Sequence record: NC_024784.1
Strand: one strand, 5' to 3'
DNA: 46,440 nt
Origin: Escherichia phage vB_EcoS_AHS24
The number at the start of each line of letters is the position of its first letter. The first letter of the stretch is position 1. Positions 1 to 25,137 of the stretch are shown here, one piece after another. A model generated the notes under the pieces. That model saw only the letters and a list, made by a program, of their open reading frames with translations. It did not search any database and was not told the origin of the DNA. The translations under genes were made by a program, and so were the position numbers.

Positions 1-516
1 ATGTCAGAAGAGAAAAAGATTCACCAGAAGATTGGCAACTTCAAGGAGCTATACAATAAGAAGTATGGCGACATTGCCAATCTAAAGATTAACCACAGGT
101 ACACTCCTGAGCAGGTATTCGACATGGCCGTAAGGTATTTCAGCTGGGCTGAAGAGCAAGCGATTAAGGCCATTGAAACGGCGAGCTTTCAGGGTGTTGT
201 AACGGAAAACCTTGTTCATAAGCCACGAATATTTACGATAACTGGATTCCAACTTTTCTGCGGCGTTGGTCATAATGCCATCAGTAAATGGCGCTCTTCG
301 CCTGGATTTGATGAGGTGATGGAGTTTGTGGATTCGGTAATCTTTGAGCAGAAGTATCAGCTTGGCGTTAACAACATCGTCAACCCTGGACTGATTGGCA
401 AGGACTTAGGCATCGATAAGCCGCAAGAGGTTAACATCAACAATGCTTCCAATGCAGTAGTGAACGATGAGGAAGCTATGAAGGCTGCGCTTGAATCAAT
501 AGTTGATAAACTTTGA
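1..516 (+). CDS. terminase small subunit (putative)
   Basis: 171-aa ORF directly upstream of large terminase at start of packaging module; assigned by synteny; window end carries GGAGG RBS that would serve this ATG if genome is circular. Confidence 0.5.
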   Translation: MSEEKKIHQKIGNFKELYNKKYGDIANLKINHRYTPEQVFDMAVRYFSWAEEQAIKAIETASFQGVVTENLVHKPRIFTITGFQLFCGVGHNAISKWRSSPGFDEVMEFVDSVIFEQKYQLGVNNIVNPGLIGKDLGIDKPQEVNINNASNAVVNDEEAMKAALESIVDKL

Positions 517-532
517 TATGTTGATATAATTA

Positions 533-562
533 CCCCATTCAATAAACGAGTGGGGTTTTTTA
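533..562 (+). terminator. putative intrinsic terminator
   Basis: Imperfect hairpin CCCCATTC...GAGTGGGG followed by TTTTTTAT. Confidence 0.45.
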
Positions 563-1077
563 TGTTAGATAGAGCGAAGCCTATGCCGCCTCTGGATTTT
601 CTTAGAGGAATTCTGAGTTACAATCCTGAAACGGGAAAGCTAACGTGGACATCAAAAGTAAGTAGCAAAACCATAATCGGATCCGAGGCTGGGACTTTGC
701 ACAAAGCTAGCGGTCGATATCAAGTACAGATACAAGGGAAGATATACAAGAGCTCAAGGATTGCATTTTATTTGTATTATGGCTTTGAGCCAGTTGGCGC
801 GGTTGACCACATAAATCGTGACCCATCAGACGATAGGATTTCTAATCTTAGGGATGCATCGCTTAGCCAAAACGGAATGAATAAGTCTATGATGAGCAAT
901 AATACATCTGGCTACAAAGGTGTTAGCTACTCAAAGAGAAGGAATGAGTATATTGCATATGTGAAAATAAATGGAAAAATGATGTTTGGAGGTTGGTTTA
1001 AGAAAAAAGAAGAAGCAGCAAAGGTGGCGGCATCAATGAGAGAGAGTATACATGGGGAGTTCTGCAATCATGAGTGA
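562..1077 (+). CDS. HNH homing endonuclease (HNH + AP2-like domain)
   Basis: HINRDPSDDRISNLR HNH-type motif; paralogous to ORF 24664..25137; inserted between terminase subunits; ORF track start 550 is GTG, ATG at 562 preferred. Confidence 0.7.
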   Translation: MLDRAKPMPPLDFLRGILSYNPETGKLTWTSKVSSKTIIGSEAGTLHKASGRYQVQIQGKIYKSSRIAFYLYYGFEPVGAVDHINRDPSDDRISNLRDASLSQNGMNKSMMSNNTSGYKGVSYSKRRNEYIAYVKINGKMMFGGWFKKKEEAAKVAASMRESIHGEFCNHE

Positions 1078-2641
1078 AATAATTGTATGGGAAGACTTAA
1101 CATACCCAGAAAAGCTAGCTATAAAGGCACTATCAACTCATAGCTTCGAGGGTTTCTTAAGGGTGTGGTTTCAAATAAGTCAATCTGAGCGTTATATTCC
1201 TAACTGGCACCATAAGTACCTCTGTAGAATCATCGATGAGGTTATTAGCGGTCAACGCAGAGATACAATCATTAACGTAGCTCCCGGGGCCGGAAAAACC
1301 GAGATTACATCCATTCACTTCCCAGTATACTCAATGCTTAAACTAAAGAAGGTTCGCAATCTTAGCCTGTCATTCTCAGATAGCCTCGTGAAGCGTAACT
1401 CTAAACGGGTTCGTGACCTTATCAAATCGACAGAATTCCAGGAGTTGTGGCCCTGCAAGTTTGGCACATGTAAGGATGATGAGATTCAGGTTCTTGATGA
1501 TTCTGGTAAGGTTAAGTTTGAATCAATATCAAAAGCAATTGGCGGTCAGATTACAGGCGCTCGCGGTGGATATATTACAGATAACTATAGCGGCTGTTTG
1601 ATGCTTGATGATGTAGACAAAGCGGATGATATGTTCAGCAAAGTCAGGCGAGAGGCCGTGCACACTCTTCTCAAAAACACCATTCGCTCACGTAGGGCGA
1701 GTAGCGTTAAAGGTAAAGCTACGCCAATTCTGTCAATTCAGCAAAGGCTTCATACTCAGGATTCAACGTGGTTCATGACTTCTGGTGGTATGGGTATCGA
1801 CTTTGATGTAGTGAAGATACCGGCGCTGGTCACTGAAGAATATGTGAATGAACTCCCTGACTGGATTCGTGAGCAGTTCGAGAAGGACGTGCTTTCATCC
1901 GAGTACGTCGAGCGAGATGGTGTTAAGTATTACAGCTACTTCCCGCAGAAGGAATCTGTGCATGACTTGATGGCAATGTGGGACTCAGATCCGTACACAT
2001 TCCTAAGCCAGTACCAACAATCTCCAGTAGCTCTGGGTGGAAACCTGATCAACGTAGATTGGTTTGCTCGCCTCGATGAGAATAACAGGCCGCCAGTCAA
2101 GTATGACTACCGTTTCATTACGGCTGATACTGCCATGACCACTAAGAGTTATAGCGACTACTCAGTATTCCAGCTATGGGGGCGCAAAGATAACAGGCTT
2201 TATCTTCTGGATATGGTAAGGGGTAAATGGGAAGCACCTGAACTTGAGCAAACTCTTCTGGACTTTGAGAGTAAGCATAGAGCAGCTAGTAAGACAGATG
2301 GTATATTGCGCAAGGTTATTATCGAGAAGAAAGCGTCTGGAATAGGACTTATCCAGTCGGCGGGTCGGGTAATGCGAACTCCTATCGAGCCTTTCGTTCC
2401 AGATACAGATAAGTTAACCAGGGTGATGAGCGCACTGCCACAGATTAAAGCTGGTAACGTAGTTCTGCCTGACTCTGCGCCATGGCTTACCTCGCTATTA
2501 ACCGAGTTCTCGGCGTTCACTGCTGACGATTCTCATCCCCATGATGACATTGTGGATACGACAACAATGGCCATCAACTGTGAATTGAACTTGAGTGACG
2601 ATCCGAGAGCCCGCTTAATGAGGCTAGCTGGCGTTAAGTAA
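1052..2641 (+). CDS. terminase large subunit
   Basis: 529 aa; Walker A-like VAPGAGKTE; acidic nuclease-type C-terminus; alternative start ATG 1070 overlapping HNH stop. Confidence 0.85.
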   Translation: MGSSAIMSEIIVWEDLTYPEKLAIKALSTHSFEGFLRVWFQISQSERYIPNWHHKYLCRIIDEVISGQRRDTIINVAPGAGKTEITSIHFPVYSMLKLKKVRNLSLSFSDSLVKRNSKRVRDLIKSTEFQELWPCKFGTCKDDEIQVLDDSGKVKFESISKAIGGQITGARGGYITDNYSGCLMLDDVDKADDMFSKVRREAVHTLLKNTIRSRRASSVKGKATPILSIQQRLHTQDSTWFMTSGGMGIDFDVVKIPALVTEEYVNELPDWIREQFEKDVLSSEYVERDGVKYYSYFPQKESVHDLMAMWDSDPYTFLSQYQQSPVALGGNLINVDWFARLDENNRPPVKYDYRFITADTAMTTKSYSDYSVFQLWGRKDNRLYLLDMVRGKWEAPELEQTLLDFESKHRAASKTDGILRKVIIEKKASGIGLIQSAGRVMRTPIEPFVPDTDKLTRVMSALPQIKAGNVVLPDSAPWLTSLLTEFSAFTADDSHPHDDIVDTTTMAINCELNLSDDPRARLMRLAGVK

Positions 2642-2653
2642 TCATGATAAACT

Positions 2654-2677
2654 GCCCCTTACTCAGGGGCTTTTTTA
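2654..2677 (+). terminator. intrinsic terminator
   Basis: GCCCCT-tactc-AGGGGC + T6. Confidence 0.7.
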
Positions 2678-2690
2678 TTGGAGAAATTAC

Positions 2691-3965
2691 ATGGTAAAAG
2701 CAGACAGCTACGCAAACATCTTTCTTAGCGGGAGTGATGGTAGTGAGGTTTACGGAAAGTTTGGCAGCCTTGGCCTAACAGCGCCAGCGCAGCTTGAGCA
2801 ACTTTATGTCAGCAGCGCTCTGGTTCGTCGAATTATTGATATCGTTCCAGAGGTCGCACTTGGCGCAGGCTTTAGTATTGAAGGTATCGACGACGAAGGT
2901 GCTTTCTGGTCGCGATGGGATGATTTAGGCCTTTCAGATAACGTAATCGACGCACTAGCCTGGGCGAGACTATACGGTGGCGCTGCTGTAGTGGCAATTG
3001 TGAAGGATGGAAGGGCGCTAACCAGCCCGGTTCGTGAAGGTGCGGAACTTGAAACAGTTCGCGTATACGACCGTCAGCAAATTAAGGTCCAGACTCGCGA
3101 GGAGAATCCACGTAACGCGCGTTTTGGTAAGCCATTAACTTACCGCATCACGCCAAACGGGTCGGCAACGTTCTACGATGTGCACTATACACGCTGTCAC
3201 ATCATTGATGGCGAGCGAGTACCTAACAACCTACGTCGTAATAACGATGGCTGGGGCGCAAGCGTACTAACTGGTGACTTAATTGACGCGATTGACGACT
3301 ATCAGAACTGTGAGCGACTGGCTACTCAGTTACTTCGTCGTAAACAGCAGGCGGTGTGGAAAGCAAAAGGCCTTGCTGACTTATGTGATGATTCAGATGG
3401 ATTTGGAGCAGCTCGTTTACGTCTGGCTCAGGTGGATAATAACAGTGGCGTTGGTCAGGCTATCGGGATTGACGCGGATAGTGAAGAGTACAACGTTCTC
3501 AACTCAGATATTGGCGGTATTGATACATTTCTGAGTCAGAAGTTCGATCGAATCGTTGCTCTGAGCGGTATTCATGAGATTATCCTTAAGGGTAAGAATG
3601 TTGGTGGTGTGTCAGCAAGCCAGAACACTGCTCTAGAGACTTTCTACGGTTATGTTGACCGTAAGCGCAAGGCTGAATTATTGCCTCTGCTTGAGTTCCT
3701 GCTGCCGTTCATCGTAACCGAGCAAGAGTGGTCAGTAGAATTTAACCCTCTATCGCAGGTTAGTGACAAGGATAAATCTGAGATTCTTGAGAAGAACGTC
3801 AATTCAGTTGCCGCATTGATTGCAGCTGGAATCATTGACGCAGACGAAGCAAGAGATACGTTGCGCGCAATTTCAACTGAGGTTAAGATTGGCGAAGGCT
3901 CAATTCAAACGGAGGTTGTAATTAATGAATCAGAAGACCCGCTGGATGTATCCGCAAATAATTGA
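2691..3965 (+). CDS. portal protein
   Basis: 424 aa directly after terminase; GGAGA RBS; synteny. Confidence 0.75.
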   Translation: MVKADSYANIFLSGSDGSEVYGKFGSLGLTAPAQLEQLYVSSALVRRIIDIVPEVALGAGFSIEGIDDEGAFWSRWDDLGLSDNVIDALAWARLYGGAAVVAIVKDGRALTSPVREGAELETVRVYDRQQIKVQTREENPRNARFGKPLTYRITPNGSATFYDVHYTRCHIIDGERVPNNLRRNNDGWGASVLTGDLIDAIDDYQNCERLATQLLRRKQQAVWKAKGLADLCDDSDGFGAARLRLAQVDNNSGVGQAIGIDADSEEYNVLNSDIGGIDTFLSQKFDRIVALSGIHEIILKGKNVGGVSASQNTALETFYGYVDRKRKAELLPLLEFLLPFIVTEQEWSVEFNPLSQVSDKDKSEILEKNVNSVAALIAAGIIDADEARDTLRAISTEVKIGEGSIQTEVVINESEDPLDVSANN

Positions 3966-23446: not shown

Positions 23447-23519
23447 TAGGCAAAACCAATTGGATAAACTTAGCTACGGATGTCATAGTTAAACCACATA
23501 AACAGAGAGAGATAGAAAA

Positions 23520-23714
23520 ATGGCATACTTCATTATTCAAGAGCGAAATAACCCTATTTTCGGAACATGTTACTACTGTGTAGATGGCTCAGGTTACACA
23601 AGCAATAAATCAGAGGCAGCAAGATTTGAGACAAAGCAGGAAGCTATTGAATACGCCCACGTGACAGATGAGGAGCTTGGTTCAGTAATGAAGATTATTA
23701 AGGTGAAGGAATAA
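23520..23714 (+). CDS. hypothetical protein
   Basis: 64 aa ORF with RBS. Confidence 0.4.
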   Translation: MAYFIIQERNNPIFGTCYYCVDGSGYTSNKSEAARFETKQEAIEYAHVTDEELGSVMKIIKVKE

Positions 23715-23717
23715 ATC

Positions 23718-24677
23718 ATGAGCTTCAAGGTTTACACTAGCGACGAGTTAACCAACGAAGCCTACCACAAGGAGTCAGACCATGTGTCTGGCTCTGGTCT
23801 GGCTCACATCTTCTCAACTTGCCCCGCTGCTTATAAGTTTGCAGAGCATGATGATAGCAATAAGGCGTTAAAGTTCGGTACATTAGCCCACACGGTTATT
23901 CTTGAAAACTCTGTATTCGATGCGACTTACTATCGCCAGCCAGCGCAAGAAGAGTTTGAGGATCTGATTACTAGCAAGACTGCTTTGGCAACTCGGTTGA
24001 AGTCGATGGGTATTGCTGGAACATCTGGTAAGGATTATCCAGAATTAATGGAGATTCTGGCGCTGAGCGGTGAATCACTTAACGTATGGTGGGATATTCA
24101 GCGCTCTAGCGAGGTTAAAGCGAACGGTCGCGAGATTGTATCAGCTAAAGACTTTGACACAGTACATGCGATGCGAGAGGTGCTGTGTGGCATTCCTGCA
24201 TACAATGCGATAGTAAACAGCAAGACCGCTCAGCGAGAGTTATCAATTTTCGGTGAGATTAACGAGTGTGGTGTAAAGGTTCGTCTTGACCATGTTGACG
24301 TGGTTGATGATGTGGTTTATATACGAGATTATAAGACCACTAGCGACGCGTCTCCGTCTGGATTTGGGAGATTGGCATTAAAGCATGGCTACTTGCTAAA
24401 AATGTCCCTTCAACATGATTTGTTTGTTCGCGCCTTTGGTGAAAAACGTAAAGTTGTTGTACAGCTTCTTTGCCAGGAGAAGAAAAGCCCTTTCTTGCCA
24501 ATGTGCTACACGATAACTAAGGAGCAATTAAAGGTTGGTAGATTGCAGTATATGAGCGCGCTTTCTACGTACAAGCAATGCAAGAAACTTGATATTTGGC
24601 CTGGTTACGGATTTGGCGAAACAGAGATGGATTTGCAGATACCGGAATATGAGATGAAAAAATATGAATTGGCATGA
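23718..24677 (+). CDS. PD-(D/E)XK family recombination exonuclease
   Basis: VVYIRDYKTT D-x-K motif; sits directly upstream of Erf/SSB. Confidence 0.6.
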   Translation: MSFKVYTSDELTNEAYHKESDHVSGSGLAHIFSTCPAAYKFAEHDDSNKALKFGTLAHTVILENSVFDATYYRQPAQEEFEDLITSKTALATRLKSMGIAGTSGKDYPELMEILALSGESLNVWWDIQRSSEVKANGREIVSAKDFDTVHAMREVLCGIPAYNAIVNSKTAQRELSIFGEINECGVKVRLDHVDVVDDVVYIRDYKTTSDASPSGFGRLALKHGYLLKMSLQHDLFVRAFGEKRKVVVQLLCQEKKSPFLPMCYTITKEQLKVGRLQYMSALSTYKQCKKLDIWPGYGFGETEMDLQIPEYEMKKYELA

Positions 24678-25137
24678 TTGGTTTTATTACAGTGAAGGTT
24701 TAATATTTTGGAAGGTTAAGCCATCAAGAGTTATACGTGTCGGATGGGAGGCTGGAAGGGTCGAAAAGACAGGATACAAGAGAGTTGGTCTTGATAAGAA
24801 GATATACTTTGTGCACAGAGTTGTATGGGAGATGTTTAACGGACCAATACCGAAAGGAATGCAAGTCGATCATATAAATCATGATAATGGGGATGACAGA
24901 ATTGAAAACCTTAGACTTGTCACTTGCTCTGATAACAATAAAAATAAATCAATAGGCAAAAACTCAACAACTGGAGTTCAAGGTGTAACTTTTTGCAAAA
25001 GGATGAATAAATATAAAGCGTCAGTTAGGTGTGATGGTAAGTATTACCACTGTGGGTACTTTAACTCCTTGAGTGATGCTGCGGAATCAAGAAGGAATAA
25101 GCTGTTAGAGCTTGGATTTCATGAAAATCACGAATGA
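24664..25137 (+). CDS. HNH homing endonuclease (HNH + AP2-like domain)
   Basis: VDHINHDNGDDRIENLR motif; paralog of 562..1077; inserted between exonuclease and Erf. Confidence 0.75.
   Translation: MNWHDWFYYSEGLIFWKVKPSRVIRVGWEAGRVEKTGYKRVGLDKKIYFVHRVVWEMFNGPIPKGMQVDHINHDNGDDRIENLRLVTCSDNNKNKSIGKNSTTGVQGVTFCKRMNKYKASVRCDGKYYHCGYFNSLSDAAESRRNKLLELGFHENHE

Follow-up and report, generated by a model that had tools for sequence, protein, structure and literature searches.

A probable free-standing HNH-AP2 homing endonuclease gene at the terS/terL junction of Escherichia phage AHP24

Why does a gene for an HNH endonuclease stand between the genes for the small and the large terminase subunit (terS and terL) of a T1-like phage? 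The question was raised by the 46,440-nucleotide DNA of sequence record NC_024784.1 (Escherichia phage vB_EcoS_AHS24), which is referred to here in its entirety as the window. In a megablast comparison, window positions 1-3000 were 100% identical to Escherichia phage bV_EcoS_AHP24 (KF771236.1; hereafter AHP24), a member of the genus Rogunavirus in the family Drexlerviridae. The open reading frame (ORF) at 562-1077 is AHP24_02 of that record, product 'HNH endonuclease'; the gene itself is therefore already known, having been annotated as an HNH endonuclease in the GenBank record of 2014. The present analysis, based on comparison of sequences, indicates that AHP24_02 is very probably a free-standing HNH-AP2 homing endonuclease gene (HEG), carried on a cassette of about 553 bp that occupies the terS/terL junction. 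The genes in question are arranged as follows.

1..516, + strand: terS, small terminase subunit, annotated AHP24_01 (Pfam GP3_package, 6.8e-8)
517..1069, + strand: inserted cassette of 553 bp, made up of a leader and the HNH-AP2 ORF, seen as a single gap against endonuclease-less relatives
562..1077, + strand: HNH-AP2 endonuclease gene AHP24_02, 171 amino acids
1070..2641, + strand: terL, large terminase subunit (Pfam Terminase_6C), start probably at 1070

The endonuclease and the empty junction

The reading frame of AHP24_02 is intact, running from an ATG at 562 to a TGA at 1075-1077. A first-pass annotation, made from the sequence alone, had assigned this ORF to an HNH/AP2-type endonuclease, and profile searches bore this out. 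The protein matched Pfam HNH_3 (PF13392) over residues 65-105 at E = 7.8e-10 and 38.7 bits, above the cut-off of 24.8, and Pfam AP2 over residues 116-165 at 19.8 bits, below the cut-off of 33.3; these were the only two families found in the Pfam scan. PHROG 99, 'HNH endonuclease', was matched at 1.8e-63, and most of the homologs retrieved in a search of 5.8 billion proteins carry both PF13392 and PF00847. The domains and the predicted active-site residues map to the following positions.

754..876, + strand: HNH_3 nuclease core, residues 65-105, from the Pfam match
805..810, 844..846 and 871..873, + strand: predicted catalytic residues D82-H83, N95 and N104, respectively, from conservation and alignment with I-HmuI
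907..1056, + strand: C-terminal AP2-type DNA-binding domain, residues 116-165, three strands and a helix

Across 61 aligned homologs H83 and N95 were invariant, and D82 and N104 were conserved in at least 90% of the sequences. The spacing of the D-H...N...N residues (12 and 9) is the same as in the homing endonuclease I-HmuI (PDB 1U3E), with whose VDH...NLR...N segment AHP24_02 was aligned, and both proteins share the DH...N(LR)...N motif and an N-terminal beta-sheet region ahead of the HNH core, although they are only 17% identical. We take D82, H83, N95 and N104 to be the counterparts of the catalytic and metal-binding residues of I-HmuI. That enzyme is encoded within an intron in the Bacillus phage SPO1; it makes a nick in one strand, and its C-terminal DNA-binding part is helical and contains no AP2 domain.

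A single-sequence phmmer search of AHP24_02 against the PDB returned no match. A profile built from four sequences gave weak matches to I-HmuI (1u3e, 'HNH homing endonuclease', E = 0.0075) and to the AP2 domain of WRI1 (E = 0.002). An AlphaFold2 model of the protein, with a mean predicted local distance difference test score (pLDDT) of 95.4, matched both I-HmuI and plant AP2 domains, its C-terminal 50 residues superposing on AP2 domains at 1.1-1.3 Å (Foldseek). With the HNH_3 family model, the catalytic residues, the fold similarity to a solved member and the C-terminal AP2 domain all found, the AHP24_02 protein combines an HNH nuclease of the I-HmuI kind with a DNA-binding AP2 domain. The ratio of nonsynonymous to synonymous substitution rates (dN/dS) among orthologs from the genus Webervirus was 0.07-0.15, and the protein is therefore maintained by purifying selection.

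The gene is placed between conserved genes, from the terS stop to the terL start, and lies neither in an intron nor in an intein. In alignments with AHP24, the relatives Rogue1, JK06, C119 and Sf12 each showed one clean gap opposite AHP24 517-1076, and in all four the sequence ATGA holds both the stop of terS and the start of terL. The first-pass annotation had asked for such a comparison with insert-less relatives, on the grounds that homing would be hard to uphold if every related genome were occupied; at least four precise empty sites were found. Its wording of an 'intron-less' terminase junction had to be replaced by 'endonuclease-less' junction, as the gene is free-standing and intergenic.

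Occupied sites are sporadic. Copies of AHP24_02 at 99-100% identity were found in AHP42, AKS96 and BECP10, and the nearest other homologs, at 55-58% amino acid identity, occur in Klebsiella phages of the genus Webervirus, in E. coli phage ETEP102 and in a few others, adjoining terL in nearly all of the top matches listed. When the region of Webervirus phage NJS1 was used as a query, 348 Webervirus-type records were matched, 23 of which covered at least 80% of the region and carry the ortholog. Most of the Webervirus records listed matched in two pieces that span 1526 instead of 2080 bp, and an empty site is therefore present in those records. A direct comparison of NJS1, which is filled, with NJS2, which is empty, placed a 551-bp gap between terS and terL. 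Sporadic distribution was thus found together with precise empty sites in close relatives, the combination that marks a free-standing HEG. A scan of IMG/VR with exact peptide patterns found no relatives.

In the RefSeq record of NJS1 (NC_048024) the 170-residue HNH-AP2 ORF between terS and terL (2504-3016) is unannotated, and the same record carries an odd joined 'terminator' feature across 1437-24178. A further small gene was seen at the same terS/terL junction in phages of the Shigella phage Sd1 type, where a 37-residue ORF with a hydrophobic C-terminus (gp52, 1013-1126 of the retrieved locus) has ATGA overlaps on either side; the junction therefore takes other small inserts too.

Flanking DNA and a candidate target in terL

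Divergence from endonuclease-less relatives increases toward the cassette from both sides. Between AHP24 and Rogue1, identity in successive bins of terS toward the insertion was 95, 89, 89, 85, 85 and 80%, and in successive bins of terL away from it 63, 73, 81, 86, 81 and 94%. Identity of terL to HEG-less relatives was 63% at 1070-1130 and 73-86% at 1131-1600, with Rogue1 at 94% over 1601-2000. The diverged flank comprises the last ~130-200 nt of terS and the first ~0.5-1 kb of terL. In the comparison of NJS1 with NJS2, terS was mostly 94-99% identical except for its last ~130 nt (55-66%), and terL was 78-88% identical over most of the next ~700 nt and mostly 99-100% identical thereafter.

AKS96 was 89-95% identical to AHP24 at 1-300, 99-100% identical at 301-2000 (except for 93% at 401-460) and 73-74% identical at 2001-2641; the tract that contains the endonuclease gene is thus near-identical and set amid less similar DNA. 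UDF157lw, in turn, matched AHP24 at 100% over positions 1-400 and again beyond 2100. Over ~400-2100 (~900-2600 of its own locus) it carries a phiEB49-like patch of ~1.7 kb, whose identity to phiEB49 is 92-99% over the nuclease gene and which holds a different HNH-AP2 gene with 36% amino acid identity to AHP24_02, annotated only as 'DNA-binding protein'. The swap of cassettes in UDF157lw therefore indicates that two endonuclease lineages compete for one junction, and with each lineage come ~100-200 bp from terS and ~1 kb from terL. That the flank travels with the gene is accordingly seen in the gradients in two genera, in the AKS96 tract and in the 1.7-kb swap. Homing with co-conversion is supported by the divergence of the flanks and the shared identical tracts, whose fit to it is correlative. 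The tracts appear roughly symmetric about the 5' end of terL when the 553-bp cassette is counted, which would fit a break near that point.

The less similar patch of AKS96 at 2001-2641, the 3' third of terL, is 89% identical to e4/1c and has 99-100% identity to AHP24 on either side. Frameshifted fragments of an HNH gene lie between terL and the portal gene in e4/1c, and the patch may mark a third endonuclease site, located where terL meets the portal gene.

A candidate for the target was found close to the insertion point. The sequence GCCAGCYGAWAAGCTGGCA, an inverted repeat of the form GCCAGC-N6-GCTGGC, occurs at terL nt ~30-48 in all eight empty genomes compared (Rogue1, JK06, C119, Sf12, NJS2, KP36, KpV522 and Sushi), which span two genera, and is disrupted in nine of nine genomes bearing either endonuclease type. 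The terL genes of Rogue1 and NJS2 are 55% identical overall and share 18 of the 19 positions of this 19-mer, the only such place in terL. The corresponding site in AHP24 is the following.

1102..1120, + strand: AHP24 allele ATACCCAGAAAAGCTAGCT of the candidate target, a putative immune variant with 8 of its 19 positions changed

No occurrence of GCCAGCYGAWAAGCTGGCA was found in the whole window at up to 3 mismatches. Presence in empty genomes and loss in carriers was followed by the candidate motif in 17 genomes, which represent few independent lineages. The pattern appears to fit the rule for HEGs, by which the target is highly conserved and carriers have immune variants, and we infer from it that GCCAGCYGAWAAGCTGGCA could be the recognition sequence of the endonuclease. 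In HEG-less terL genes GCCAGC-N6-GCTGGC is conserved at synonymous sites across the two genera (~1542-1560 of the retrieved Rogue1 locus). Apart from its candidate role as a target, the repeat may serve as a hairpin in the mRNA or as a site for a protein.

Expression of the cassette and rival explanations

The gene is preceded by a compact leader and followed without a gap by terL.

503..530, + strand: promoter-like site of the sigma-70 type, TTGATA-16-TATAAT, its -10 preceded by TG (11 of 12 positions matched, in addition to the extended -10)
532..561, + strand: terminator-like hairpin and T-run ending at the HNH start codon; 9-bp stem 532-540/548-556, loop 541-547, T-run 557-561
1070..1077, + strand: ATGAGTGA, the HNH stop overlapping the terL start by 8 nt, with likely translational coupling

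In KF771236.1, too, the stretch 503-530 upstream of AHP24_02 is annotated as a promoter and 532-561 as a rho-independent terminator. The promoter-like site was the best in 1-3000, and its -10 abuts the hairpin. The first-pass annotation was right to place a hairpin after terS and ahead of the ORF: the structure at 532-556 has a folding energy of -14 to -15 kcal/mol (z = -4.6), and none of 200 shuffled sequences was as stable. The Shine-Dalgarno (SD)-like sequence GAGTGGGG lies in the 3' arm of the hairpin. An RNA starting at 537, ~7 nt past the -10, lacks the 5' arm and showed no fold (-1 kcal/mol).

The same leader, consisting of a TG-extended -10-like hexamer, a hairpin, a T-run and an ATG, was found in AHP24, ETEP102, NJS1/HZJ32 and Roth44/25-49702. 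In these four ortholog lineages the hairpins have 9-12 bp and -12.5 to -15.2 kcal/mol, with SD-like purines in the 3' arm. The stems vary in sequence from lineage to lineage, and double changes were seen at 4 of 7 consensus pairs in a set of only six sequences. The leader can be read as a promoter-hairpin element that would control expression of the endonuclease. In the T4 genes I-TevI, segB and mobE a hairpin hides the ribosome site on read-through transcripts, and a promoter within or beside the hairpin gives a translatable RNA (PMC2988022); the AHP24 leader resembles this arrangement as far as the analogy can be drawn from sequence. A GTG at 550 was considered as the start codon of AHP24_02 and ruled out, since orthologs align from the ATG directly 3' of the T-run.

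At the other end of the gene, the overlap with the terL start reported by the first-pass annotation stood, although its extent is 8 nt with terL starting at 1070 and not the 26 nt that would result from the annotated AHP24 start at 1052. The TerL N-termini of relatives align from the ATG at 1070, and the annotations of AKS96 and BECP10 agree with this start; the start given in GenBank (1052) is probably 18 nt too early. An 8-nt overlap of the form ATGnnTRA was also found in NJS1, HZJ32 and ETEP102 and, as ATGAGTAA, in Roth44 and 25-49702. Translation of terL is likely coupled to that of the HNH gene through ATGAGTGA, and the overlap therefore suggests that terS-terL coupling is replaced by HNH-terL coupling in the cassette. 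In Rogue1 the annotated terL start (1537 of the retrieved locus) lies 24 nt downstream of the real ATG, which overlaps the terS stop as ATGA. In some records, then, terL start codons are misannotated.

Homing of the cassette, modelled on what is known of the protein family, could proceed as follows. In a cell infected at once by a carrier and by a relative without the gene, the protein would bind through its N-terminal beta-sheet region and AP2 domain and would nick or cut the rival DNA near the terS/terL junction. The break would be resected and then repaired from the AHP24-type genome, and the repair would copy the cassette along with a few hundred bp of the terS 3' end and 0.5-1 kb of the terL 5' end. 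The carrier genome would be protected by its own, differing terL 5' end, the candidate target being GCCAGCYGAWAAGCTGGCA at terL nt ~30-48. Read-through transcripts from terS would terminate at the hairpin or hide the ribosome site, those from the cassette promoter (~nt 537), without the 5' arm, would be translated, and terL would be translated by coupling to the HNH stop at ATGAGTGA.

Several points weigh against homing. Patches of divergence could be produced by phage mosaicism alone, and AKS96 has an unrelated-looking patch of 73% identity at 2001-2641. The HEG-less genomes within each genus are closely related, which leaves few independent lineages behind the motif contrast. The SD-like GAGTGGGG of AHP24 is weak, and the promoter and terminator of the leader are consensus matches only. 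The GC content of the insert (40.1% vs 43.8%) falls at the 14th percentile, which is not unusual and gives no sign of foreign origin. Finally, the AHP24 genome paper makes no mention of an endonuclease or of homing (PMC4070988).

Other accounts of the locus were weighed against the same data. A speculative extension, to which we give a rather small chance, is that the cassette has taken over terL expression via its hairpin, its own promoter and the stop-codon coupling, and that the inverted repeat is a functional element in HEG-less terL mRNA or DNA; in a milder variant the nuclease would influence the initiation of headful packaging. If true, the takeover of terL would make loss of the cassette costly, as in addiction, or would shift the TerS:TerL ratio.

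Slightly less probable again is that AHP24_02 is a relic, decayed or domesticated, that has lost the ability to home. On this view its patchy distribution and its diverged flanks would result from ordinary exchange of modules by recombination between T1-like phages, in which the nuclease gene was carried along. Mosaic patches unrelated to the gene do occur nearby, as in AKS96 2001-2641, the HNH_3 score of AHP24_02 is below that of a paralog elsewhere in the window (38.7 vs 77.4 bits), and the homing of a single nuclease gene cannot be proven by bioinformatics alone (PMC10448857). A relic is difficult to reconcile, however, with an intact ORF, conserved catalytic residues and the low dN/dS of 0.07-0.15, or with copies of the gene that share 99-100% identity in phages where the DNA nearby matches at 73-95%. 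Against a relic there is also the recurrence, in a second genus, of the flank asymmetry with its centre at the 5' end of terL, as well as the replacement of the gene in UDF157lw, at the same site, by a different endonuclease gene with its own flanks.

The position of the gene between terS and terL and its likely translational coupling to terL are what a component of the packaging apparatus might show, and in HK97 an HNH nuclease encoded beside the terminase genes, gp74, acts with terminase on cos and is conserved in related packaging modules (PMC10448857). A protein of that kind would aid terminase in cutting phage DNA. Orthologs at the same junction in three lineages, purifying selection on the gene and the existence of HNH nucleases that cooperate with terminase speak for such a role, and homing and packaging are not mutually exclusive (PMC10448857). 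Nevertheless, a packaging role of AHP24_02 is very improbable. The gene is dispensable in relatives, being lacking from the viable phages Rogue1, JK06, C119 and Sf12 and from most Webervirus records, and AHP24-type genomes are circularly permuted, which indicates headful and not cos packaging (PMC4070988). Unlike gp74, AHP24_02 bears an AP2 domain, and HNH_3 plus AP2 alone is the architecture described for HEGs (PMC10448857). The HK97 nuclease is encoded directly upstream of terminase and cos, AHP24_02 between terS and terL; neither conserved presence in the packaging module nor cos association upstream of terminase was found. Terminase genes of other phages host introns and inteins (PMC10448857), but that AHP24_02 belongs to a group I intron or to an intein can be dismissed as next to impossible, as the insert is bounded exactly by the stop of terS and the start of terL, each of these genes is complete and collinear with its counterpart in HEG-less relatives, and no Rfam intron family was found in 1-3000, the sole match being sub-threshold and at chance level (E = 0.66).

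Known systems and the second copy

As a homing endonuclease gene, AHP24_02 has well described counterparts. Free-standing HNH-AP2 HEGs near terminase genes have been reported (PMC10448857), and intronless homing, co-conversion, control by a hairpin and an internal promoter, and the displacement of an endonuclease gene by a different one at the same site have all been reviewed (PMC2988022). The HNH-AP2 HEGs of phages and cyanobacteria, including IPA-HNH of vibriophage ICP1, are like AHP24_02 in having an N-terminal HNH and a C-terminal AP2 domain, in being free-standing and in lying beside essential genes, terminase among them; the domains of the ICP1 protein are too divergent for Pfam HNH_3, whereas AHP24_02 matches this model directly (PMC10448857). 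Plant AP2 factors are thought to derive from the phage and cyanobacterial HNH-AP2 endonuclease family, according to the work cited as ref. 45 in PMC10448857.

The mob and seg genes of T4-like phages (MobE, SegG, SegB, and SegH/Hef replacing mobC/mobE) are, as AHP24_02, intergenic and sporadic and show co-conversion of flanks (PMC2988022). They have a target in a neighbouring essential gene, a hairpin over the ribosome site and an escape promoter, features that AHP24_02 would share, and different endonuclease genes are found at one site, as at the AHP24 junction (PMC2988022). The mob and seg proteins belong to other families or have other DNA-binding domains than AHP24_02. Phage late promoters are used in the T4 examples, whereas the AHP24 cassette has a host sigma-70 extended -10-like site, and the candidate target of AHP24_02 lies within ~50 bp of the insertion point compared to hundreds of bp in T4. 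The closest comparison is with phiEB49 gp59 and its UDF157lw counterpart UDF157lw_00013 (162 residues), HNH-AP2 proteins encoded at the same terS/terL junction with diverged flanks of their own, as AHP24_02. These are 36% identical to AHP24_02 and 49% to the second copy in AHP24, and their leader differs in having no hairpin, a strong AGGAGG and a 1-nt overlap with terL.

A literature search found no paper that combines AHP24 and HNH, and among papers on homing endonucleases and terminase in Drexlerviridae or Webervirus nothing specific to the terS/terL junction was found. The additions made here are modest: a candidate motif for the target, a leader of promoter and hairpin that is conserved between lineages, and the competition of two endonuclease lineages for the same junction. 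Their general significance is small, as HNH-AP2 HEGs beside terminase genes are a documented pattern. The 5' half of terL and the 3' end of terS in Rogunavirus and Webervirus would be subject to endonuclease-linked gene conversion, and terL-based phylogenies and taxonomy of these two genera can therefore be distorted. Several Rogunavirus and Webervirus phages serve in biocontrol or therapy. With carriers and non-carriers on the same E. coli O157 hosts and a competing endonuclease gene at the same site, these phages make a convenient system for intronless homing in non-T4 phages that use the host RNA polymerase.

The paralog mentioned above lies well away from the terminase genes.

24664..25137, + strand: second HNH-AP2 endonuclease gene, 157 amino acids (HNH_3, 6.4e-22, 77.4 bits)

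The first-pass annotation had recognized this second copy by a shared core and had suggested two homing events by one endonuclease family. The core, DHINxD..DDRIxNLR, is indeed common to both copies (DHINRDPSDDRISNLR vs DHINHDNGDDRIENLR), which are 40% identical over 131 residues (BLASTP, E = 8e-28), and no further copy was found in the window. The second copy sits between the genes for exonuclease VIII (exoVIII) and an Erf-like recombinase, starting 14 nt inside the 3' end of exoVIII (24664-24677), and is absent in Rogue1, JK06, AKS96, BECP10, UDF157lw and AHP42. AHP42 is 99.9% identical to AHP24 in the terminase region, yet it lacks exactly 24668-25136. Identity between these two phages was 100% at 23500-24200, 85-91% nearing the gene, 59-67% for ~400 nt downstream of it and 100% from 26100. 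In Phagiculus the second copy is 95-99% identical and its flanks are 77-90% identical. The idea of two homing events fared well: the second copy is independently polymorphic, and two separate acquisitions by one family are indicated because the copies are only 40% identical. A recent duplication was considered as the origin of the two copies and ruled out by this low identity and by the second copy being closer to phiEB49 gp59 (49%) than to AHP24_02.

The C-terminus of exoVIII in AHP24 differs from that in the insert-less AHP42, and the second cassette is without a promoter-hairpin leader like that at 503-561. Elsewhere in the window a single tRNA-Arg gene with anticodon CCT was found at 45859-45934, as reported for this phage group.

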